DNA of 64,000 bases from Rickettsia typhi (GTDB lineage: Bacteria; Pseudomonadota; Alphaproteobacteria; Rickettsiales; Deianiraeaceae). The notes beneath the pieces were generated by a model, which did not search any database, was not told where the DNA came from, and saw only the letters and a list, made by a program, of their open reading frames with translations. The position numbers and the translations under genes are program-made. Positions within the stretch are counted from its first letter, which is position 1; each line of letters begins with the position of its first letter. This document shows, piece after piece, positions 47,819 to 60,010 of the stretch. The stretch spans positions 223 through 64,222 of the forward strand of contig CAMDBF010000003.1 in NCBI GenBank assembly GCA_945889175.1. Reading direction: 5' to 3'.

Positions 47819-49150
47819 ATGTTTACAAAAGGAATTGTATTTTTTTTAACGACATTAAGTACTCTAATCTTTTTTTTAGAGAGCTTTGCGTCTTGTAAAA
47901 ATGCAGCTCTTATAATTCCAAATGCAAGCCACATAACAATAGGTGCAACACTTGATAATTATGATATTCAAGTTGCCTGTAGCATAGTAAATGGTACCGA
48001 ATATATTAACCCAGAAGGAAATAAGATTTTTAAAGTACTTTGCATAAATGGAACATGGAACAAAAAAACACTGCACTCATGCAACATCCCTCCAGCTAAG
48101 CCAATATACGGTGGGCGTAAAAACTTTAATTGCAATACTGACTACCTAAATATTGCAAATGCAACTTTAAAATTCAACAACACTACAATTACAAATCCAA
48201 TCACCGTAGCAAATGGAGCACAAATTGCTGTAACATGCAATGTTGGATATTTTGCCTCAATGCTTGCAAAAAACCCAGATCCCACAGAAGATGCGGACCC
48301 CAAAGCAGTTGTACCAATTGGATCTTACGCCGTTACCTGCGATAACGGAGTTTTTACCAATGTTAAAAACTGCACGCCAATTTGCAGCATCGACAGTTTA
48401 CAAACTTTTATGAGCAACCTAGGTGAAAGTATTACTATTTTAAACGACAATGTTGTTACTCTTGCCAGTGGTTCAAAAGTTGCCACGGTTGACTCTTCCG
48501 TAAAAGTAAAGTGTAACCAAGGCGGAATTAAAGAGATAGGATCTGACACTTACAACCTTAAATGTGTATATGCTACAGTATGCTACGACGACTCAAAAAC
48601 AACTTGTGAATTACTTTCTTATTTTAAAATTAATGACCCCAATTTACCAGAGGCAAACATTATTAATGCCGACATGAATAATGCAGAATCAGAGGTTTAT
48701 TTTAAAAGTTTTCCCAGATGCAGTGCTGAATATAAATCTTGCAAAAAAAGTGATATAGATTCAGCTATAACAACAGGACTACTTGACTCTTACGATATAA
48801 CTGACAAATATATCAAAACAGGAACAACAATAAGACTGACATGTGACGATAGTATTTTACGGTCTCAAGCTTCCAGTACTGCAAATGTCGACGGTCAAAA
48901 TGTTGGACTTTATAGCGACTCTACATCAGTTACATCAAATGCAACCCCAACAAGGATAGTTACCGACACAACGAGTGTTGACACAAGTCAATATAATGTT
49001 TTCAATACAAATGGAACCAATATAGTAACAGCAATTAAACTTGATTCCGATGGTAGACAATACTCTGATATTACCTGCAGAGACGGCAGCTGGGAGCCAA
49101 GTGTTGCAGTATTGCAATGCCCTGGGGAAACCAAATCGCCAGCGGTATAA
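47819..49150 (+). CDS. secreted Cys-rich protein built of Sushi/CCP-like modules
   Basis: Signal peptide, then four 4-Cys modules. Three end in a CCP-like motif: 'CINGTWNKKTLHSC', 'CDNGVFTNVKNC' and 'CRDGSWEPSVAVLQC'. Earlier 'C..G(Y/G)' strands are also present. Confidence 0.5.
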   Translation: MFTKGIVFFLTTLSTLIFFLESFASCKNAALIIPNASHITIGATLDNYDIQVACSIVNGTEYINPEGNKIFKVLCINGTWNKKTLHSCNIPPAKPIYGGRKNFNCNTDYLNIANATLKFNNTTITNPITVANGAQIAVTCNVGYFASMLAKNPDPTEDADPKAVVPIGSYAVTCDNGVFTNVKNCTPICSIDSLQTFMSNLGESITILNDNVVTLASGSKVATVDSSVKVKCNQGGIKEIGSDTYNLKCVYATVCYDDSKTTCELLSYFKINDPNLPEANIINADMNNAESEVYFKSFPRCSAEYKSCKKSDIDSAITTGLLDSYDITDKYIKTGTTIRLTCDDSILRSQASSTANVDGQNVGLYSDSTSVTSNATPTRIVTDTTSVDTSQYNVFNTNGTNIVTAIKLDSDGRQYSDITCRDGSWEPSVAVLQCPGETKSPAV

Positions 49151-49262: not shown

Positions 49263-51116
49263 TTGATCTACCAGATCTTATCTATTTTTATTATGGCAGG
49301 AGGAGCACCAGAGCAAGACAAGGTTTTAAGATACTTTAAAAACTTGGTTGTATTAAGTATTTTTTATGGAATAATCCTAGGATTTTTCTATTTTGCAAAC
49401 CTTCTATCAATTATTGCAGTTGTCGAATCCGTCGATAGAGTTATCAGCATCCTGCATTACGACCCTAAATTATATGCTAAACTAGCTATCGAAAGAACTC
49501 TTTACTACTGGTCTTTTTGGTTAAAATACAAAAGTACAATAAATTACTCTTATCATCACTTTTTTGTTATAAAGCTTTTTGCATTAACAATATCGCCTAC
49601 AATTTTATTAATGCTGTACATAAAAACTAAATGGCAAAGCATTAAAGAGTTTGTACCTTATAAGCCAGGGGAGGCTTTACACGGGGATGCCCATTGGGCA
49701 AGTTATTCTGAGATTAAAAAAATCGGTCTCTTTGCTAAGGATGGAATGCTTCTTGGCGAATACAAGCCTTCTAAATATTTTATTATAAAAGACTACCAGC
49801 ATGTACTACTCTTTGCTCCAACTGGATCTGGTAAGGGTGTTGGCTTTGTAATACCAAATCTATTATTTTGGAAAGAGAGCGTACTTGTTCATGATATTAA
49901 ACTTGAAAACTACGAACTTACAAGCGGATATAGATTTAATGTTTTAAAGCAAAAGTGTTACACTTGGGCTCCTGCTGATCCAGAAGGATACTCCCATTGT
50001 TACAATCCACTTGACTGGATAGCAACTCAATCTGGTAAAATGGTAGATGATGTTCAAAAAATTGTAAAAATTGTTATGCCAAAGCAAGAATTTTGGGAAA
50101 ACGAAGCTCGAAGCATGACAGTTGGGGTTATTTTGTTTTTAATAGCCGACGAAACAAAGCCCACAACCTTTGGAGAGGTTGTTAGAACACTAAGAAGTGA
50201 CGATGTAACTCAAACCCTAGCCGTTGCACTTGATACTCTTGGTGACAAGATTCACCCAGTTGGATATATGAATCTTTCTGCTTTTTTACAAAAAGCTGAA
50301 AAGGAAAGATCTGGTGTAATATCTACTGCAAACTCTGGACTTGAGCTTTGGTCAAACCCACTTATCGATAAAACAACATCACGAAGCGACTTTGACATAA
50401 GGCAGTTTAAAAAAGATTTGACAACCGTTTATGTAGGACTAACTCCCGATAACATTGAAAGACTAAGACCTCTAATGTCAATGTTTTACCAGCAGGCGAC
50501 AGCTTTTTTAGCATCTAAAATTCCACAAAAAGATGAACCATATGGCGTTATGTTTATGATGGATGAGTTTCCTACCGTTGGAAAGCTTGAACAATTTTTA
50601 TCTGGTATCGCTTATTTTCGTGGTTACCATGTTAAACTTTTTTTAATCGTACAAGATACTCAGCAATTAAAGGGTACATACGAAGACTCTGGTATGAACT
50701 CATTTTTATCAAACTCTACCTACCGTATAACATTTGCAGCCAATAACATTGAGACGGCAAAGTTAATATCCGAGCTTGTTGGTAACAAAACAGCCGTCTC
50801 AGAATCAATGAACAAGCCAAAGTTTTTAGATCTGAACCCTGGTAGTAGATCAGTCCACATGTCTCATACCCAAAGAGCTCTGCTTTTACCGCAGGAGGTT
50901 ATAGGATTGCCAAAAACAGATCAAATTATTCTTATCGAGGCATCACCACCAATAAGATGTAAAAAAATTAGATACTTTAAAGATAAATTTTTTACAAGGA
51001 AACTTCAAAAACCAATACCAATTCCAAAACAAAAACCTTATACTCCAAAAAGACAGACTCCAAAGCCACAAAATTCAGAATCAAATGCAACATCTTCCAA
51101 TGCGGCTAACAATTAA
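49263..51116 (+). CDS. virD4: type IV secretion coupling protein VirD4/TraG
   Basis: N-terminal TMs, Walker A 'FAPTGSGKGVGFVIPN', 'MFMMDEFPTVG' (Walker B) and 'FLIVQD'. The start is TTG 49263 or ATG 49293. Confidence 0.85.
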   Translation: MIYQILSIFIMAGGAPEQDKVLRYFKNLVVLSIFYGIILGFFYFANLLSIIAVVESVDRVISILHYDPKLYAKLAIERTLYYWSFWLKYKSTINYSYHHFFVIKLFALTISPTILLMLYIKTKWQSIKEFVPYKPGEALHGDAHWASYSEIKKIGLFAKDGMLLGEYKPSKYFIIKDYQHVLLFAPTGSGKGVGFVIPNLLFWKESVLVHDIKLENYELTSGYRFNVLKQKCYTWAPADPEGYSHCYNPLDWIATQSGKMVDDVQKIVKIVMPKQEFWENEARSMTVGVILFLIADETKPTTFGEVVRTLRSDDVTQTLAVALDTLGDKIHPVGYMNLSAFLQKAEKERSGVISTANSGLELWSNPLIDKTTSRSDFDIRQFKKDLTTVYVGLTPDNIERLRPLMSMFYQQATAFLASKIPQKDEPYGVMFMMDEFPTVGKLEQFLSGIAYFRGYHVKLFLIVQDTQQLKGTYEDSGMNSFLSNSTYRITFAANNIETAKLISELVGNKTAVSESMNKPKFLDLNPGSRSVHMSHTQRALLLPQEVIGLPKTDQIILIEASPPIRCKKIRYFKDKFFTRKLQKPIPIPKQKPYTPKRQTPKPQNSESNATSSNAANN

Positions 51117-51411
51117 GTTTATCAAAACTACAGATATGCAGCAATAATGCTGGTTAATTGTCAGTATTCAATAAAATATACTCGTTTAAGTTGTACTTTA
51201 TATAAAAATAGATTTATTTGTACAACTAAAGTCCACAAACCTTACAATTACGCTAATAATAACAATTTTTTTACAATATTTATAAAATAAATTTGCATTT
51301 TGAAAAAATAAAAGATTATATTTATATTATAACAAAATGATTTTTACAACCTAGTATAAAATTATTTTGTATTTTGTTTATAATTTATCATTTAATTTGA
51401 GTATTTTGCGT

Positions 51412-51765
51412 ATGCAAATAAAAAAAAGTAAGAATTTAAGAGGTAGTAGTAACAACTTATTAAATGTATTGTTGCAAAGCAATGGTGATAACGATGGTAA
51501 TTTTAATGTTACTCTGGAGCTTGATAATGCAAAGATTGGATCTTTTTTAAAGTCAATGAGATTAATTAAGCTTATGACTTTAATGGATATTCAAAATGCG
51601 ACAAAAATTTCATATCAACAAATCAAAAAATACGAAGAAAATAAAAGCAGGATAAGTATCAACAACTTAGCATCTATTCTTGAGGCTCTTGGACTTTATT
51701 CCTCTCTTCAGATTACCACTGGAATATTTAAAGAAAATACTAAAATGATAAAAAATAAGCTTTAA
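51412..51765 (+). CDS. XRE-family helix-turn-helix transcriptional regulator (paralog B)
   Basis: 'IGSFLKSMRLIKLMTLMDIQNATKISYQQIKKYEENKSRISINNLASILEALG'. The first ATG in context is at 51412. Confidence 0.7.
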   Translation: MQIKKSKNLRGSSNNLLNVLLQSNGDNDGNFNVTLELDNAKIGSFLKSMRLIKLMTLMDIQNATKISYQQIKKYEENKSRISINNLASILEALGLYSSLQITTGIFKENTKMIKNKL

Positions 51766-52000: not shown

Positions 52001-54082
52001 ATGCTTGTAAAACATATATCGCTGAGCAAGTTGATTAAAAATATCACAAAGAAAACATATTATTACACATCAGTAAAATTAAAAGCCTTTTCGTTAATTG
52101 AAGTTGCAATTGCAATTGTACTTGTTGGCATAGTAACATTCCCTCTTATATCTATTACAACTGGCTTTTTAGAGAGGGCAAAGATAGAAAAGACAAACAA
52201 ATCGATAGCCGTCATTAAGGAGTCTTTGGTTTCATATTTTTTAATGAATAAAGCTCTACCCTGCCCAGCCGATCCAACTCTCAATCCAAATAACCCAAAC
52301 TATGGCAGCTCGCAATCTTCTTGTTCTTCAATTAAAGGAACCGTTATAGGTTCGCTACCAGTTGACGCTCTTGGACTTAGTAGAGATTTTATACTTGATG
52401 GTTACGGTCGTAAATTTGCTTATGCCGTTCCAAGCTTTTTAACAACATCAGGAAATGTGCGTTTTTATAAAGATAGAGCAGAAAAAACAATCATTGCATA
52501 TGATGGAAAGGAGCAACTATCTGCTGACAAACAAATTACACTAAATTCATCGGGCGGTACATTAATTGCAAGCGATGTATTTTTTATCATTAATAGTTAT
52601 GGCAAGGATGGGGTTGGTGCCTATCTTGAAAACGGCTCCAGACTTAAAACAACCAACATAAATGCCTCTGTTACCGCCGGAATGGCGTCTTACACAAGCT
52701 CCTTTACCTTGTTTTCAAAAAACGATATCACTGGAGATGATGTTCTGCAATATGGATCGTTTAAATCTATATTAAGCCTATTGCAAGACTACGGGTATGT
52801 AGAATGTCAAGATATAAAAGGTAACAACTCAAGCTTTACGGATATAAACTCTTTTACCTTTCCAAAAACTTCGGCAAATACAACAATAACTGCTAGTGCA
52901 TTAAGTTGTCCAAACGGTACAGCTTTACTTCAAACACCCACTGCAACTTGCTCGTCAAGCGGAGACTGGATAAACTTCAAACCTCAAGAATGTGGGTATT
53001 ATAATAAAGATGTTATTTACGGAACTATTACCTTTGGCGATGTTGGTACCGCAAGTGGTGCAGTTACTTCAACTGGACCAATACTCGCTGCTATCAAAAC
53101 ATTAGATGTCACAGGAGCAACAGCTATAGAAGTTTTAGTCGATAACCTAGGCGGAACCGACTACAGGGTTCAGGCTACATTAAAATCGAACGATGCTAAG
53201 GATGTAAACACTGTAAGCACGCCAGTTATCAAAATTATCGATAGCAGTAAGTTTCATATCCTATTAAAGGACATAGGAATTGCAACTCAAGATCCAAGCT
53301 TTGGAGTATCACTTGTTATAACAAGTCCTTTAAAAGCATCTAACCAACTAGATGCAACATTATATCCTGGCATGCCTCTTTGTACAATAGTAGCTCTGTA
53401 TTCAGAAACGATACCAGATGGATGGAAGCTTTGCGACGGAAAAAACTTGACGACAACTGATACGTGTGATAAGAATTTACAAACATACTGCGGACTTACA
53501 TCTACCGCACCAGACTTGAGAGGTCTTTTTTTAAGAGGTCTTGACAAAGGAAGAGGCATGGATCCAGAGTATTCAACCTCAAGATACAATCCACTAGATT
53601 CAGTCGCCAAAACAAGTGTTACAAAAACAACCACATCAAATGCAATAGGCAGTATACAAGATGAAGCTATTATAGCCCACGCCCACTCCCTTGCAGCAGT
53701 AAAAGCAACCCTAAAAGGAACTGCAACAACAACCATAACTCCACCTGCAACTGGAAATGTTTTACTCTCTGGGACGAGTACAAATGCAATCCTTATCTCT
53801 ACAACTACAACTGCACCTACTGGAACTAGCAGGCTCTTCCAGTTGCCAGGTAACACGCCAGCCTTAGCTGTTGCAGGTCTTAGTGCCTTAAGCTGGCCAG
53901 CCGTTACAAATATTACTGGCATCACTGTTAGTGTTACAGCACCTTCCGTAGTGGGATCAATAGACACTTCATCCGAACAAGACGCAACTACCAGCGGAGA
54001 TATCACAACCGAGACAGCGATGGCAACCAACGAGGTAAGACCTAAAAATATTGCGGTAAATTACATTATAAGATGCAAGTAA
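52001..54082 (+). CDS. chimeric surface protein: prepilin-type N-terminus and pilin-like domain fused to a phage tail-collar/tail-fibre-tip-like C-terminal domain
   Basis: 'KAFSLIEVAIAIVLVGIV' is near-consensus for the N-methylation site (Ala at -1, Glu at +5) and is followed by the pseudopilin-like 'LPCPAD...GSLPVDALGL...DGYGRKFAY'. The C-terminus has 'IPDGWKLCDG...APDLRGLFLRGLD.GRG.D...QDEAIIAHAH...NEVRPKNIAVNYIIR'. Confidence 0.6.
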   Translation: MLVKHISLSKLIKNITKKTYYYTSVKLKAFSLIEVAIAIVLVGIVTFPLISITTGFLERAKIEKTNKSIAVIKESLVSYFLMNKALPCPADPTLNPNNPNYGSSQSSCSSIKGTVIGSLPVDALGLSRDFILDGYGRKFAYAVPSFLTTSGNVRFYKDRAEKTIIAYDGKEQLSADKQITLNSSGGTLIASDVFFIINSYGKDGVGAYLENGSRLKTTNINASVTAGMASYTSSFTLFSKNDITGDDVLQYGSFKSILSLLQDYGYVECQDIKGNNSSFTDINSFTFPKTSANTTITASALSCPNGTALLQTPTATCSSSGDWINFKPQECGYYNKDVIYGTITFGDVGTASGAVTSTGPILAAIKTLDVTGATAIEVLVDNLGGTDYRVQATLKSNDAKDVNTVSTPVIKIIDSSKFHILLKDIGIATQDPSFGVSLVITSPLKASNQLDATLYPGMPLCTIVALYSETIPDGWKLCDGKNLTTTDTCDKNLQTYCGLTSTAPDLRGLFLRGLDKGRGMDPEYSTSRYNPLDSVAKTSVTKTTTSNAIGSIQDEAIIAHAHSLAAVKATLKGTATTTITPPATGNVLLSGTSTNAILISTTTTAPTGTSRLFQLPGNTPALAVAGLSALSWPAVTNITGITVSVTAPSVVGSIDTSSEQDATTSGDITTETAMATNEVRPKNIAVNYIIRCK

Positions 54083-55677
54083 TTAAAAACTTTTTAAAAA
54101 AATTAAGCTCAGTATCATTAAGTCTAAGCTTAACGCAAATTAACCTTGCGATAGCTTTTGCTGCAATCAGTCTCACTTTACACTCTTCGCCTTTAGTAAG
54201 TTTTGTAGTAAAAAATACATCTACAGCCAAGATTGTAATTTTATCGCAAGTTTTGGTTTTACAATTTTTAGTTATAGCTTTTTTTTCAAATTTACTTTGC
54301 ATAATTTTTTATAAGCATACAAAAATTTTAAAATCAATACTAATCTTTATTTGCCTTGCAAACTCTATTGCAATTTATTTTGTCAACACATTTGCAACAA
54401 TTCTTGACAAGGCAATGTTTAGCAATGTTTTTAACACAAAATACAGCGAGGCATCGCAGCTTGTAGGCTTTAGCTTAATATATTACATATTGCTTTACGG
54501 CATTGTTCCAAGTTACTTACTTGCAAAAATAAAAATTACCAAAAGTAGCTTTGCAAAAAAAATCCTTAGCTTAGTAATATACTTAATACTTACAATTGTC
54601 ACAGGCTTTGCAAATTCCAAAAATTGGCTCTGGTTTGACAAACATGCAAAACATCTAGGCGGACTCGAAATGCCTTTTAGCTACATAATAAACTCAGTAA
54701 GAGGCTACAAGATGCTTCACCAAAAGCCAAAGATTTACAAGGAGCTTGAACTTGCAACATTTACTGGTGGTAAAAATAAAACCTTGGTGGTATTAGTTAT
54801 TGGCGAATCGGCAAGAATGCAAAACTTTTCACTCTATGGTTACAGTCAAAATACAAACCCCCTGCTCTCAAAGGATGGGGTTGTTGCCCTTCAAAATCCA
54901 AGCTCCTGCACAACTTACACAACTGGCTCCATAGAATGTATGCTTAGCAATCTAAGTTCCCGATCTTCACATCGTACAGATTTTGAACCTTTGCCAAACT
55001 ACCTATTAAAACATGGTGTAAGCGTAATTTGGCGAAGCAACAACTGGGGACACCCAAGTATACAAACAAGCCTATACAAAGAGATAAAGGATATACAAAA
55101 AGAATATACCGTAAGGCAAAATATTAATTACGACGAAGTGTTGCTTGAGGGGCTCGAATTAGATATCGCAAAATACCAAAGCTCGCAAAATATTTTTGTT
55201 GTTTTGCATCAAGCTGGTAGCCACGGGCCATCTTACAACCTTAAATACCCAAAAGAGTTTGAAAAATTTACCCCAGTTTGCAATAGTGTTGAAATACAAA
55301 AGTGCTCAAAACAAGATTTAATTAATGGATATGACAACACAATTTTATACACAGATTTTATTTTGCACTCTTTAATTGCAAAATTAAAACAAATTAAAAA
55401 TAGAGATGTTTTAATGATATACACATCAGACCATGGAGAATCACTAGGTGAAGATGGATTTTATTTACACGGCACGCCTTATAGCCTTGCCCCAGATTAC
55501 CAAAAAAAAGTGCCTATGATACTTTGGTTTTCAGCAGGATTTGCAAACAAGCATAAAATAGATATTGCAAAACTTAAGGCAAGACAAAATAACTCACATG
55601 ATTTAATCTTTCACACTATAACATCTTCATTTTGGCTTAAAGATGGAGCGGTAGAACAAAAATACTCTTGCATTTAA
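54073..55677 (+). CDS. eptA: lipid A phosphoethanolamine transferase (EptA/MCR family)
   Basis: Five N-terminal TMs and a sulfatase-fold domain with 'VLVIGESARMQNFSLYGY', 'HQAGSHGPSY' and 'TSDHGESLGEDG'. It overlaps the previous gene by 10 nt. Confidence 0.85.
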   Translation: MQVIKNFLKKLSSVSLSLSLTQINLAIAFAAISLTLHSSPLVSFVVKNTSTAKIVILSQVLVLQFLVIAFFSNLLCIIFYKHTKILKSILIFICLANSIAIYFVNTFATILDKAMFSNVFNTKYSEASQLVGFSLIYYILLYGIVPSYLLAKIKITKSSFAKKILSLVIYLILTIVTGFANSKNWLWFDKHAKHLGGLEMPFSYIINSVRGYKMLHQKPKIYKELELATFTGGKNKTLVVLVIGESARMQNFSLYGYSQNTNPLLSKDGVVALQNPSSCTTYTTGSIECMLSNLSSRSSHRTDFEPLPNYLLKHGVSVIWRSNNWGHPSIQTSLYKEIKDIQKEYTVRQNINYDEVLLEGLELDIAKYQSSQNIFVVLHQAGSHGPSYNLKYPKEFEKFTPVCNSVEIQKCSKQDLINGYDNTILYTDFILHSLIAKLKQIKNRDVLMIYTSDHGESLGEDGFYLHGTPYSLAPDYQKKVPMILWFSAGFANKHKIDIAKLKARQNNSHDLIFHTITSSFWLKDGAVEQKYSCI

Positions 55678-55726
55678 CATTACAACATATAGGATAGCTT
55701 TTTAATAATTAGCTTGGTGAGTGTTT

Positions 55727-56749
55727 ATGAAAAAAATCTGTTTTTTTAAATTTTTATTAATAATACTAATAAATCTGCATTTTAACCAGTCCTTTGCTAC
55801 TCAGCAAACAGATTCTAAAAATGTCAACAAACAAGTCAATAAAGAGCAAAATCAAACAAAATGTGTTTTTCACTTTAACAAGCCTTCCACACAAAATACT
55901 GACAATAATTGTACCGAGGTTAAAATAGGCTTAGAGTTTTCAAATCTTAATTACAACATGCTTACAGCTGCTGACTCGGTATTAAGATGGGCAGACTCTA
56001 GAGGTTCAGGAGCTAATATCGAGCTTACACAAAATCTAAACCAAAAATATAAATTTGCCTTTAGATTTTCAAGACAAAACCTAAAAGGCGGTAGCATGAT
56101 GGACGATGACATTCAAAACCATGGCGGAATATTTAGTCAGTCCGATTCAATGAGTGGAAACTACACTAAAATACAAGCCTTGGTTTTTAAAAAACTTGAT
56201 TACCAATTCAATCCAAAATTAAAGTCTTTTTTTATTTTTGGTCTCGAGCAAAAAAAATTAAATCTATATCCAACAAATGGATATCAGCTTACCTTAGGTC
56301 ACAACGATATACCCGCTAATACTTACTATTTAGACAAAAATACTCAAACAGCAAAAATGCTAGCCAAAGGTTTAAATATAGGACTAAACTACGAGCTTGA
56401 ATTATCCAATGTCAACACAATAGGACTTGAAATTGTAGCATTTTTACCACTACTTATTGAAAGCTCTCAGCATGACTGGGGATACAACAATACAAATGGA
56501 TTTGATTGGCAAATGCGATTAAGCGGACTAAAAGCTTTAAAAAACAGCAGATCTTACGCTATAAAAATAGAGGAAAAGCACAAAATTAACGATAATTATT
56601 GGCTAAGTGTTTATGTGTTTTCGGAGGTAATGAAAATTAACAATCCATATGAAATTGATAGAAAAAATAACAAAGTTGTTAGAACGTACAAATCCCAAAA
56701 TATAGAATTTTTTAATTTTGGAATAGGAACCTCTTTATCAATAAAATAA
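55727..56749 (+). CDS. omptin-family-like outer-membrane beta-barrel protein
   Basis: Signal peptide (…NQSFA). 'GGSMMDDDIQNHGG' compares with OmpT 'GGNMVDQDWMDSSNPG', 'IESSQHDWGY' with 'VESSDNDEHY', and the C-terminal 'NIEFFNFGIGTSLSIK' with 'IENYNFITTAGLKYTF'. The OmpT sequence is recalled from memory. Confidence 0.5.
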   Translation: MKKICFFKFLLIILINLHFNQSFATQQTDSKNVNKQVNKEQNQTKCVFHFNKPSTQNTDNNCTEVKIGLEFSNLNYNMLTAADSVLRWADSRGSGANIELTQNLNQKYKFAFRFSRQNLKGGSMMDDDIQNHGGIFSQSDSMSGNYTKIQALVFKKLDYQFNPKLKSFFIFGLEQKKLNLYPTNGYQLTLGHNDIPANTYYLDKNTQTAKMLAKGLNIGLNYELELSNVNTIGLEIVAFLPLLIESSQHDWGYNNTNGFDWQMRLSGLKALKNSRSYAIKIEEKHKINDNYWLSVYVFSEVMKINNPYEIDRKNNKVVRTYKSQNIEFFNFGIGTSLSIK

Positions 56750-57517: not shown

Positions 57518-60010
57518 ATGTTTAATGGACTTAGTCTTAACAGGCATAAATCAAAAAAAAGAGGGGTAGCTAAATACGAATACTCAACTTCAAACTTCAT
57601 ACCATACTCCCGACATTACAACGGTAAAACTATAGTTACAAAGGACGGTGAACTTATAAGTGTTATAAAAGTATCTGGCTTTTCTTTTGAAACTGCCGAT
57701 GACGATGACCTAAATTTAAAAAAAGACGCAAGAAACAACTTATTAAAAGGCTTTGCAACGGGTCAGTTTGGAGTGTACTTTCATACTATACGAAAAAAAC
57801 ATCAGGCCTATCCAGATGGTAAATTTAGCGACTTAATTTGCAAAGGTATAGACGACGAATGGAGACTGAGGCATGAAAAAGATTATACATTTATCAACGA
57901 GCATTACATTACAATACTACGAAAGAGTAATAAAATTGAAGAGGGCTTTGCTAAGCTATCTAAAAAAATTGCAAGTCGCAAACGCAAAAATAACGATGCA
58001 CTTGACGATGACGAGATAGATGAGGAGGTTCAAAAAGAATTAGCTAAAGTGGAAGAAGAAATATTAAAAGAAAACCACTCTCAACTTGAAGAGGTAAGGG
58101 ACAGAATCTACAATTCACTTTCGGGTTATCAGCCTGAAATACTTGAGGCAAAAAAAACAAGTGATGGCTTTTACTGCCCAATGCTGGAATTTTTATCTAG
58201 CATATCAAATTGCTGTCAGGTGCAAAAGGTTTTGGTTCCCAATATTTCACTAGATAAATACTTGCAAAGAGTAAGGCTTTATTTTAGTGGCAAAACTGGT
58301 GAATTTATAGCGCCAACTGGCGAGAAAAAATACTTTGCAATGGTTAGTTTAAAGGACTATAGAAATACCACGCATGCTGGACTTATGGATTCTTTTTTGC
58401 AGCTTCCATTTGAATTTGTAATTTCACAATCTTACTTCTTTATAGATAAGATGATTGCAGTCAACAAGCTACAATTACAACAAAGAAGACTTATACAATC
58501 AGAGGATGTTGCCATCTCTCAAATTGCCGAAATTAACGAGGCCTTGGACTCTTCAATGTCAGGTAGATTTGCTTTTGGTAATCACCACATGACAGTTATG
58601 TGCATAGGTGACAGCATAAAGGAGCTTGATTCAAATGTATCGCAAACGGTTGTGGAATTTTCGAGCGTTGGTATTAATGCAACGAGGGAAAGATTTAACT
58701 TAGAGCCAGCATTTTGGTCTCAGCTACCAGGTAACCAGTCTTTTATAGGTCGTAAGTCAATTATAAACAGTATGAATGTAGCATCCCTTGCTTCGCTACA
58801 CAATCATCCATCGGGCAAGCGAAAAGGCAACCATTGGGGCGATGCGGTTACGGTTTTTAATACAACATCTGGTACCCCTTATTTTTTTAGCTTTCATGTA
58901 AGAGATGTTGGGCATACAATGATAGTTGGTCCAACTGGTGCCGGTAAAACGGTTTTAATGAATTTTTTATGTGCTCAGGCACAAAAATTTAATCCAAAAA
59001 TATTTTTCTTCGATAAGGACAGAGGTGCCGAGATATTTGTAAGGGCAATAGGTGGTAAATATATTTATCCATCAGCATCCGAATATTCTGGCTTTAACCC
59101 ATTGCAACTTGCCGATACTTATGATAATAGAATTTTTCTTGAAGGATGGTTTGTTGCAATGCTAACATCGGCAGGCGAAAGTCTTGCCGCAGAGGATTAT
59201 GCAATTATCAAACAGGCAGTAGATGGCAACTACAAACTACCAAGAGATCAAAGATGTATATCCAATGTGTCAGCTTTTTTTGGAATGGAAAAAGTTGGTA
59301 GCCTTGCAAACAGACTTGCAAGATGGCACGGACAGGGCTCAAAAGCAAAACTTTTTGACAATCCTGAGGATAGCATTGATTTTTCCCATGGAAGAGTCTT
59401 TGGCTTTGAGATGGGTGATTTACTTAAGGATAAAATATCGCTACCAGCAACCCTTGAATATCTTTTTCACAGAATATCAGGCTCGCTTGATGGTAGTCCA
59501 ACAATGATAGTTTTAGACGAGGCTTGGGCATTGATAGATAACCCTGTTTTTGGACCTAAAATTAAGGATTGGCTCAAGGTATTGCGTAAGTTAAATGCTA
59601 TGGTTGTTTTTGCAACCCAATCAGTTGAAGATGCTACAAAAAGTAACATAAGCGACACATTGGTTCAGCAAACAGCAACTCAAATATTTTTACCAAATCT
59701 TAAGGCAACAGAAGAATACAAAAGAACCTTTATGCTAACCGATAGAGAGTTTAATCTTGTTAAAACAACCGACCCCGGAACAAGGTTTTTTTTAGTAAAA
59801 CAAGATAGCAACGCAGTAATTACAAGAATTAGCCTTGCCGGCATGGACGATATTATATCAATACTCTCAGGAAGAGTTGAGACCGTTGACCTCTTGGATA
59901 AAATTAGAGCAAAAGTGGGCGACGACCCATCCGCTTGGCTACCAATTTTTCTTGATACACTTCATCAGGAGAAGCTAAAGAAAAAATCAGAAAAATCAAC
60001 CGATGTGTAG
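57518..60010 (+). CDS. virB4: type IV secretion ATPase VirB4
   Basis: N-terminal 'FIPYSRHYNGKTIVTKDGELISVIKVSGF', Walker A 'GPTGAGKTV', 'MIVLDEAW' and 'VFATQS'. No virB3 lies upstream and no virB6 downstream. Confidence 0.9.
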   Translation: MFNGLSLNRHKSKKRGVAKYEYSTSNFIPYSRHYNGKTIVTKDGELISVIKVSGFSFETADDDDLNLKKDARNNLLKGFATGQFGVYFHTIRKKHQAYPDGKFSDLICKGIDDEWRLRHEKDYTFINEHYITILRKSNKIEEGFAKLSKKIASRKRKNNDALDDDEIDEEVQKELAKVEEEILKENHSQLEEVRDRIYNSLSGYQPEILEAKKTSDGFYCPMLEFLSSISNCCQVQKVLVPNISLDKYLQRVRLYFSGKTGEFIAPTGEKKYFAMVSLKDYRNTTHAGLMDSFLQLPFEFVISQSYFFIDKMIAVNKLQLQQRRLIQSEDVAISQIAEINEALDSSMSGRFAFGNHHMTVMCIGDSIKELDSNVSQTVVEFSSVGINATRERFNLEPAFWSQLPGNQSFIGRKSIINSMNVASLASLHNHPSGKRKGNHWGDAVTVFNTTSGTPYFFSFHVRDVGHTMIVGPTGAGKTVLMNFLCAQAQKFNPKIFFFDKDRGAEIFVRAIGGKYIYPSASEYSGFNPLQLADTYDNRIFLEGWFVAMLTSAGESLAAEDYAIIKQAVDGNYKLPRDQRCISNVSAFFGMEKVGSLANRLARWHGQGSKAKLFDNPEDSIDFSHGRVFGFEMGDLLKDKISLPATLEYLFHRISGSLDGSPTMIVLDEAWALIDNPVFGPKIKDWLKVLRKLNAMVVFATQSVEDATKSNISDTLVQQTATQIFLPNLKATEEYKRTFMLTDREFNLVKTTDPGTRFFLVKQDSNAVITRISLAGMDDIISILSGRVETVDLLDKIRAKVGDDPSAWLPIFLDTLHQEKLKKKSEKSTDV

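Follow-up and report, generated by a model that had tools for sequence, protein, structure and literature searches.

The gene at positions 52001 to 54082 of the window (the whole stretch of DNA that was analysed, 64,000 nucleotides of contig CAMDBF010000003.1) encodes a 693-residue protein that, on balance, is probably a modular minor pilin or pseudopilin serving as an adhesin. As judged from its sequence, the protein would be processed by a prepilin peptidase, would form a trimer at the end of a secretin-dependent filament and would bind a surface glycan through a variable head. A previous sequence-only reading had described it as a chimera of a prepilin-type N-terminus and a phage tail-collar C-terminus, and both signals proved to be solid: GspG matched the N-terminal helix with E=1.6e-5, the T4 short tail fibre gp12 matched the C-terminal part with E=7e-6, and each part was backed by its homologs.

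The open reading frame (ORF) was uninterrupted and had the same architecture in three independent assemblies, all inter-strain indels being in frame. The gene order was also shared by the three strains: SecA, Mur ligase, UvrD, a 443-residue protein, VirD4, a helix-turn-helix (HTH) protein, the 693-residue protein, EptA, an outer-membrane protein (OMP)-like protein, Maf and VirB4. Since the same full-length frame and gene order recurred in three assemblies, the chimera is real and not an assembly join, which disposes of the artefact that the earlier reading had allowed for. The protein was found at 100% identity on two to three contigs, and its full-length orthologs were P0002 (ENA contig, 693 residues, 88% identity) and P0003 (1.285-Mb JGI contig, 687 residues, 78%).

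Architecture of the 693-residue protein

The gene and its parts were delimited as follows; the structural scores are pLDDT (predicted local distance difference test) values from AlphaFold2 (AF2).

52001..54082, + strand: whole gene, stop codon included, for the 693-residue modular pilin-like protein (ORF listing, ATG start)
52001..52087, + strand: leader peptide, residues 1-29, hydrophilic and basic (7 K/R, 0 D/E), Ala at -1
52088..52249, + strand: mature N-terminus FSLIEVAIAIVLVGIVTFPLI and long α1 helix, residues 30-83, with F1, E5 and G14
52250..52786, + strand: globular pilin-like module of the LPCPA family, residues 84-262, Cys88/Cys108 pair conserved
52787..53005, + strand: four-Cys module, residues 263-335 (C269, C303, C317, C331, W323), conserved in P0002-P0006
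53006..53335, + strand: all-β spacer, residues 336-445, AF2 pLDDT 76-90, strands only
53336..53695, + strand: tail-collar core, residues 446-565, with PDLRGLFLRG at 504-513 and H560/H562, homologous to T4 gp12
53696..54025, + strand: Thr/Ala/Ser-rich hypervariable insert, residues 566-675 (110 residues; T 24%, A 14%, S 11%)
54026..54079, + strand: conserved C-terminal strand NEVRPKNIAVNYIIRCK, residues 676-693, aligned to the gp12 C-terminus, pLDDT 82-93

The prepilin-type (class III) signal spans residues 26-50 (KLKAFSLIEVAIAIVLVGIVTFPLI), and the predicted mature end starts FSLIEVAIAIVLVG, with Phe at +1, Glu at +5 and Gly at +14. About 21 hydrophobic residues follow the cleavage site together with the Glu at +5, the arrangement that defines the pilin superfamily. 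The leader was kept in P0002 and P0003 and partly in P0004. When ATG, GTG and TTG were considered, the only alternative in-frame start near the motif was a TTG at 52031, which would give a leader of 19 residues. AF2 placed a helix over residues 32-83 (52 residues). The match to NCBIfam GspG (TIGR01710) covered residues 29-91, the helix region only, with 24.9 bits against an equivalog cut-off of 88.85, and a profile of the LPCPA family, described below, matched in the PDB only the α1 helices of pilins and pseudopilins (geopilin, TcpA, GspG, PilA and PilE; E=8e-7 to 1e-3).

The globular module contains the motifs LPCPAD (86-91), GSLPVDALGL (117-126) and DGYGRKFAY (133-141); these, like the other motifs quoted in the earlier reading, were found at the residue numbers given there. 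Across 17 members of the LPCPA family the invariant positions were L-P-C-P-A, a second Cys, a Pro, the Asp of DGWG, a Tyr, the S.G of SHG and an Asp of DD. The whole protein has ten Cys residues, which are paired, in keeping with a location outside the cytoplasm. The likeness to GspG, its best NCBIfam match in the helix, may extend into the globular module, whose motifs appear to resemble the strand motifs of GspG and, in our reading, follow the same order: an aromatic-Gly strand, an S.G.DG loop and a DD..(Y/W) end. However, the module differs from GspG in being twice as large, in having the LPCPA disulfide motif and in the absence of a gsp operon or gsp genes nearby. The pilin-like character that the earlier reading saw in this domain was therefore retained, while its assignment to a generic pseudopilin gave way to a distinct LPCPA family.

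In the four-Cys module the spacing is C-x33-C-x13-C-x13-C, with a Trp ahead of the last Cys. The module had no match in Pfam; by spacing it resembles a CCP/sushi domain, a likeness that is unverified. The β spacer, found in P0004 and absent from P0005 and P0006, is probably an Ig-like sandwich as modelled, and a Foldseek search with the AF2 models gave no significant fold matches for it.

The collar motifs lie at residues 471-480 (IPDGWKLCDG), 503-521 (APDLRGLFLRGLDKGRGMD), 553-562 (QDEAIIAHAH) and 677-691 (NEVRPKNIAVNYIIR). In the PDB sequence search the alignment with gp12 extended over residues 448-563 and 673-693, with AHAH opposite the HKH of gp12. An exhaustive phmmer search of a representative library returned 2167 collar relatives at E<=1e-3, and in a word-indexed search PF07484 was present in 40 of 40 homologs, which were named tail fibre, phage tail protein or microcystin-dependent protein. 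All of the near-invariant collar residues were kept (G474, W475, C478, PDLRGLFLRG, H560, H562 and E.RP.N..VNYII), and in the C-terminal strand E, R, P, N, V, N, Y, I and I are near-invariant across the collar family.

AF2 was run on the full 693-residue protein and on residues 336-693, as monomers, with a mean pLDDT of about 60. Confidence was high only for the α1 helix, the β spacer, the collar core (above 90 for residues 460-510) and the C-terminal strand, and low across the insert at 566-675. The full model gave nothing significant in Foldseek. With the C-terminal half, the best match was a 526-residue T4 baseplate chain (probability 0.94, E=2.4e-3, a modest value), which from its length we take to be gp12; other matches were the gp37 tip (2xgf) and the short tail fibre (1pdi). 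The gp12 trimer coordinates a single zinc ion on its three-fold axis through one HxH motif from each chain, and its distal head is formed by the stretch from HxH to the C-terminal strand. By analogy, the insert at 566-675 presumably forms the distal head at the fibre tip.

Phage and plasmid records matched the collar core only, at 31-38% identity, and the best tblastn matches among phage records reached 31-32% over about 110 residues. With identities of just 31-38%, no recent phage donor is evident. The search of 72,556 plasmids by tblastn hit the collar region only, in Rhizobium tail-fibre genes, and found no similarity to PilV, and both a PilV-like origin and a recent phage origin were rejected.

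Among the top collar relatives, P0009, P0012, P0013, P0017 and others are about 510-560 residues long and were matched by the query three to five times; P0009 consists of three tandem complete collar units. Judged from these repeats, the multi-collar proteins may be single-chain pseudo-trimers of the tail-fibre tip.

The LPCPA family and its peptidase-secretin clusters

The N-terminal module belongs, by its conserved motifs, to a distinct and unnamed pilin-like family, small but widespread, that is called LPCPA here. A pattern scan of GTDB genomes collected 20 loci. The members share a prepilin-type N-terminus, N.RLPCPA, a second Cys, G.VP...LGL....DGWG.R..Y, ISHG.NG.GA and FDD(I/L)V.Y. In distant members the signal is of the canonical type, G|F(T/S)L(L/I)E; L012 (25.0 bits), L017 (23.6) and L034 (21.4) exceeded the N_methyl/TIGR02532 cut-offs, as did a prepilin-type gene neighbouring the member at L108 (26.3). 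Many members from AT-rich genomes, some of them adjoining pilD, have Ala or Ser at -1. Ala at this position can be tolerated.

The link to a processing peptidase was found in relatives. At L009, in a Rickettsiales metagenome-assembled genome (MAG), a gene for a 243-residue A24 prepilin peptidase is divergent from a tandem pair of LPCPA genes whose products both have Ala at -1. Further clusters were found with this PilD as a metagenome probe, by a protein search with the PilD profile and by reading two more contexts. The layout was recurrent: pilD, with one to three LPCPA genes on its divergent side, precedes genes for a secretin, a 254-residue protein with multiple transmembrane (TM) segments (X254) and a 248-residue protein (Y248). 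Such clusters were present at L010/L108, L011, L027, L028, L035, L036, L038, L041 and L109, and also at L008, L009, L031, L033, L034 and L037. In tblastn an LPCPA gene directly adjoined pilD at 13 distinct loci, L010/L108 being counted once, and the pilD-secretin-X254-Y248 block was present in full or in part at about 10 loci. The secretins scored 94 and 116 bits against PF00263; X254 and Y248 had no Pfam family, and Y248 was up to 82% identical between MAGs. Members that adjoin the peptidase and have Ala at -1 occur at L009, L109 and L108/L010, for example HA|FTFIELS and SA|FTLIELA at L109. The strongest argument that LPCPA proteins are true peptidase substrates which leave the cell via a secretin is this linkage to pilD and secretin genes. 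To judge from gene content and order, the cluster may represent an undescribed minimal type IV filament system.

The longer LPCPA proteins carry diverse C-terminal modules: FG-GAP propellers in one Rickettsiales MAG and one Planctomycetota MAG, PA14/GLEYA in the Holosporaceae 'Namur', a SUEL lectin in Micavibrio, and NHL repeats. A pilin-like gene neighbouring one LPCPA gene carries a ConA-like lectin domain. Because other members carry such typical ligand-binding modules, the collar would be one option in a family of modular adhesins.

The closer relatives differ in their C-terminal parts. P0004 (439 residues) shares the four-Cys module and the β spacer and ends there; a split gene with the collar encoded downstream was rejected, as the next gene encodes a Cys/Met pyridoxal phosphate (PLP) enzyme. 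P0005 and P0006 (601 residues) have the N-terminal module and the Cys module, followed by an unrelated C-terminal domain for which no match was found in Pfam, NCBIfam or the PDB. P0004 has Met at +1, and a long leader and a residue other than Phe at +1 are reminiscent of type IVb pilins. Distant LPCPA members in Rhodocyclaceae and Usitatibacter are orphan loci amid unrelated genes.

Two further observations concern such loci. In the sister lineage with the P0004-type and P0005-type paralogs, a 309-residue prepilin-type gene lies four kilobases downstream of the 601-residue paralog (L004 11072-14114 / L006 15890-16837; G|FSIVEIAV, N_methyl E=0.0014), followed by a 698-residue protein without a family, which brings the prepilin-type genes of this small genome to at least three. 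A large ORF upstream of virB4 is a single gene of 1905 residues in one assembly and two of 944 and 958 residues in the other (L005 1434-7151 versus L003 1436-7133), with no Pfam family; it may be a giant protein associated with the type IV secretion system (T4SS) or reflect a frameshift in one assembly.

Among the best 150 of the 2167 collar relatives, only two representatives had a prepilin-like N-terminus, P0002, which belongs to the cluster of the protein itself, and P0010. The latter (L107 10001-15265, 1754 residues, chromosomal) has an A|VTIVE signal, Cys-rich modules and two PTL_trimer + Collar units, then a Peptidase_S74 chaperone domain (SDERAK) and a C-terminal TM helix. From its domain composition, P0010 is a second, independent and unrelated chimera of a pilin-like protein and a tail fibre.

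Strain variation, proposed function and alternatives

The three strains differed little in most of the neighbourhood: VirB4 was 100% identical and UvrD, VirD4 and Maf were 96-99% identical. Over its whole length the 693-residue protein was 80-90% identical, the 443-residue Cys-rich protein 83-93% and the OMP-like protein 75-81%. Within the 693-residue protein, the helix was 95-97% identical, the insert 44% (window versus the JGI strain) and the last 18 residues 100%. The dN/dS ratio was 0.25-0.41 for its gene, compared with 0.00-0.10 for the housekeeping neighbours, and because the overall ratio is below 1 the gene is under purifying selection. For the insert a ratio of 1.40 was obtained against the ENA strain, from small counts (15 N, 4 S). 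In one strain pair the β spacer was identical while the flanking segments differed, a mosaic pattern of divergence that fits allele exchange and diversifying pressure on exposed envelope proteins. Four envelope-type genes (47819-49150, 52001-54082, 54073-55677 and 55721-56749) showed 75-95% identity, a dN/dS of 0.14-0.41 and a raised dS, and they look like a strain-variable surface block shaped by recombination. Variation of the shufflon type or by a diversity-generating retroelement (DGR) was rejected, since no long inverted repeats and no template repeat were found between 51000 and 56900.

The mechanism that we favour would run as follows. The hydrophobic helix would insert the protein into the inner membrane, and a prepilin peptidase tolerating Ala at -1 would cut off the leader. 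As a minor subunit, the protein would then be added to the distal end of a short filament (type IV or pseudopilus) crossing a secretin. There, the trimerising collar would clamp three copies together, in analogy to the tip trimer of CofB/TcpB, and their three HxH motifs would coordinate a single metal ion, as those of gp12 do. Binding of a surface glycan or an LPS (lipopolysaccharide)-like ligand on a host, prey or partner cell would fall to the variable head, and the binding specificity would diversify among strains via recombination and selection. Type IV pili have been reported in some Rickettsiales and are proposed to mediate attachment to the host (PMC10847448, PMC9352585).

Several observations weigh against this mechanism, 1) on the single sequence the scores were below the cut-offs for Pfam N_methyl (E=0.007, 16.3 versus 21.2 bits), TIGR02532 (11.1 versus 16.3 bits) and Pfam Collar (PF07484; E=0.0043, 17.4 bits versus a gathering value of 24), 2) Ala takes the place of the Gly at -1 that is described as crucial to processing by PilD (PMC6497953), and at 29 residues the leader is of unusual length, 3) the AF2 pLDDT was below 50 for residues 145-293 and the globular pilin fold was not recovered, 4) trimerisation and metal binding of the collar domain are predictions from homology, 5) the tested parts of the 64-kb window and the syntenic loci contained no prepilin peptidase, secretin, X254, Y248, assembly ATPase or platform gene, 6) the 1.285-Mb sister contig had no peptidase profile match among the matches listed (120 of 1830), and 7) there was no assembly ATPase or platform gene inside the pilD clusters of the relatives. 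The metagenome scan with the L009 PilD and the PilD-profile search returned many peptidases, and among the matches listed none was assignable to the sister contig or the window contig. The Pfam check that the sequence-only reading had proposed thus failed at the gathering thresholds of N_methyl and Collar, and the collar homology was established instead through gp12 and the 40 homologs with PF07484. Its statement that the window holds no pil or gsp genes was borne out in the parts tested.

An adhesin on a pilus or pseudopilus, one of the two placements that had been suggested from the sequence, is the better supported of them by virtue of the pilD and secretin genes beside relatives and the adhesin modules within the family. 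The other, at the inner membrane facing the periplasm, is rather unlikely. Here the protein would sit on an uncleaved pilin-like anchor, the filament machinery having been lost, and the collar would bind an envelope glycan such as nascent LPS, maybe together with EptA at the periplasmic face of the inner membrane. Domains of the gp12 type bind the LPS core, which speaks for such a role, but the hypervariable distal insert fits poorly with periplasmic housekeeping. The Ala at -1 after a 29-residue leader would suit an uncleaved anchor, although LPCPA members with the same Ala adjoin pilD and a secretin. Similarly, the 10-nt overlap with eptA in all three strains would suit a joint function, whereas the eptA pairing is absent at the P0004 and P0005/P0006 loci. 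The lack of pil and gsp genes in the window and syntenic loci and the reported rarity of type IV pilus genes in crown Rickettsiales (PMC10847448) also favour an anchor; however, Glu5, Gly14 and the whole of α1 are strongly constrained (95-97%), and Glu5 is described as necessary for filament assembly and not for processing (PMC6497953). If the periplasmic anchor were correct, the protein would be a curiosity of genome reduction.

An improbable alternative, which differs from the favoured mechanism only in the partner system, is an accessory adhesin of the rvh T4SS that directs or steadies contact for effector delivery, much as the PilV minor pilins of the IncI thin pilus do in conjugation. The gene's region is flanked by virD4 (49263..51116) and virB4 (57518..60010) in three strains, and in another lineage a P0004-type relative lies directly downstream of a virB4. 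This proximity may nevertheless be due to chance, because housekeeping genes separate the dispersed rvh/vir-type T4SS genes, UvrD, Maf and EptA lying in between. Moreover, no T4SS gene lies near the P0005/P0006 paralog or next to the cluster-linked LPCPA relatives. A precedent for such a role is given by the PilV adhesins, which have variable C-termini and recognise the LPS of the recipient (PMC9045228, PMC5297154, PMC5430464), but the 693-residue protein has neither sequence similarity to plasmid PilV nor shufflon-type repeats.

A prophage remnant or assembly chimera without function as a unit, to which the weak single-sequence Pfam scores and the annotation of the phage and plasmid matches as phage tail-fibre genes might point, is effectively refuted by the uninterrupted ORF with only in-frame indels in three independent assemblies, the housekeeping and T4SS neighbours, the low identity of the best phage matches (31-32% over about 110 residues), the overall dN/dS below 1 and the conservation of the junction domains in paralogs.

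The favoured pilus-type adhesin has several counterparts among known systems. For two InterPro entries an assumption was made: IPR011083 is presumably the tail-collar entry (unconfirmed; a literature search for the accession found no paper), and IPR030392 presumably the auto-processing chaperone domain of tail spikes and fibres, likewise unconfirmed. Modular pilins comprise 1219 proteins in 264 architectures (PMC8179133), and Dataset S1 of that study has IPR012902 together with IPR011083 in two architectures, one protein each, and together with IPR030392 in 29 proteins. The architecture of the 693-residue protein agrees with the definition given there, and the earlier remark that no fusion of a pilin and a tail fibre had been described was an overstatement, given the established modular pilins (PMC8179133) and the second fusion, P0010. 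As in S. sanguinis PilB with its vWA domain and PilC with its lectin (PMC8179133, PMC9934059), a pilin module is joined to a C-terminal binding module that is not pilus-specific, with presentation at the tip predicted. In contrast to these, the carrier is a large LPCPA module of about 230 residues and not a small pilin, two spacer domains intervene, the graft is a phage receptor-binding domain predicted to homotrimerise, and the protein is known from genes alone, from an orphan locus away from pil genes in a Rickettsiales-type host.

CofB, the trimeric minor pilin at the tip of type IVb pili (PMC6048534; also PMC5207764 for CofB/TcpB), and TcpB likewise have a pilin domain followed by β-rich domains, with a C-terminal lectin-like domain that homotrimerises at the pilus tip. 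They have no sequence similarity to the 693-residue protein, carry an H-type lectin where it carries a tail collar, and belong to a T4b operon; the trimer is in its case a prediction. With T4 gp12 (PF07484; 1OCY, 1PDI) the protein is homologous over 448-563 and 673-693, keeps PDLRG.F.RG, HxH and E.RP.N..VNYII, and has a variable segment between HxH and the returning C-terminal strand. Unlike gp12, it has no fibre shaft or phage context, and its collar is mounted on a pilin-like membrane helix instead of a baseplate-binding N-terminus. PilV of the IncI1/IncI2 thin pili (PMC9045228, PMC5430464) also combines a constant N-terminal part with a variable C-terminal part that sets target specificity, with a T4SS nearby; here, however, there is no shufflon or recombinase, and the variation is between strains and paralogs and not within a clone.

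The design principle, that of the modular pilin, is thus already known, and the 693-residue protein is an unusual example of it and not a new kind of system. What appears to be new is 1) the LPCPA carrier family with its link to a compact pilD-secretin-X-Y cluster, 2) the grafting of a phage receptor-binding domain, predicted to be trimeric, in a genome of the Rickettsiales type and 3) the strain-level hypervariability of the grafted collar domain. A wider proposal, possible at best and put forward tentatively, is that the LPCPA family and the pilD-secretin-X254-Y248 cluster constitute a minimal and so far undescribed type IV filament system in Rickettsiales/Holosporales-like endosymbionts and predators, a system whose subunits carry interchangeable host-attachment modules. 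In the present case a domesticated phage receptor-binding domain would serve as a metal-clamped trimeric pilus tip that diversifies among strains, possibly in concert with the neighbouring rvh genes.

If the favoured mechanism is correct, the bacterium would have equipped a pilus-type subunit of its own with the part of a phage tail fibre that recognises receptors, a clear instance of domain domestication that connects host recognition by phages with adhesion by bacteria, and the protein would be a candidate host-attachment factor in an uncultured Rickettsiales-type lineage whose attachment mechanisms are poorly known. The hypervariable insert marks the likely specificity-determining region, and the pilD-secretin-X-Y cluster of the relatives would offer a compact system for studying the processing and export of large modular pilins.

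Host and neighbouring genes

The DNA of the host is AT-rich, with about 33% GC, and its nearest relatives are MAGs labelled Rickettsiales or Holosporaceae, from which we infer that the host is an endosymbiont of the Rickettsiales type and that its genome measures about 1.3 Mb. The window proteins checked elsewhere were housekeeping proteins such as GroEL and DnaK, with no phage-type neighbours. The following genes near the 693-residue gene were considered.

47819-49150, + strand: 443-residue Cys-rich protein with a signal-like N-terminus (ORF listing)
51367..51765, + strand: small XRE-type HTH protein upstream of the gene (HTH_19, weak)
54073..55677, + strand: EptA-type phosphoethanolamine transferase, downstream and overlapping (NCBIfam EptA, 541 bits versus a cut-off of 561)
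55721-56749: OMP-like protein, 342 residues, no family

The 10-nt overlap with eptA noted in the earlier reading was confirmed and is kept in all three strains (window, L002 and L026), and the two genes are probably co-transcribed. EptA itself varies between strains (85-95% identity) and co-varies with the pilin-like gene. PptA of Neisseria, a relative of the EptA-type enzyme family, adds phosphoethanolamine to pilin; a pilin-modifying role for the EptA-type neighbour is a speculation.

The 443-residue protein has repeated endings of the 'C..G.W....C' type, like those of the four-Cys module (residues 263-335) and the P0010 modules. It had no Pfam or NCBIfam match, and homology with the 693-residue protein was rejected, as BLASTP found no similarity between them. 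Its Cys pattern makes a CCP/sushi-like fold possible.

The best NCBIfam match of the upstream HTH protein was to the helix-turn-helix at the N-terminus of the Wmk model (E=8e-8, far under the cut-off). Wmk is the WO male-killing protein of Wolbachia, and the match, confined to that segment, probably reflects the shared HTH type only. The HTH protein is possibly a local regulator. Between 51896 and 51952, some 50-100 nt 5' of the start codon of the 693-residue gene, a 25-nt AT-rich direct repeat with internal dyad symmetry occurs twice, 32 nt apart. From its symmetry and position this pair is a candidate operator, although it could have arisen by chance in AT-rich DNA.

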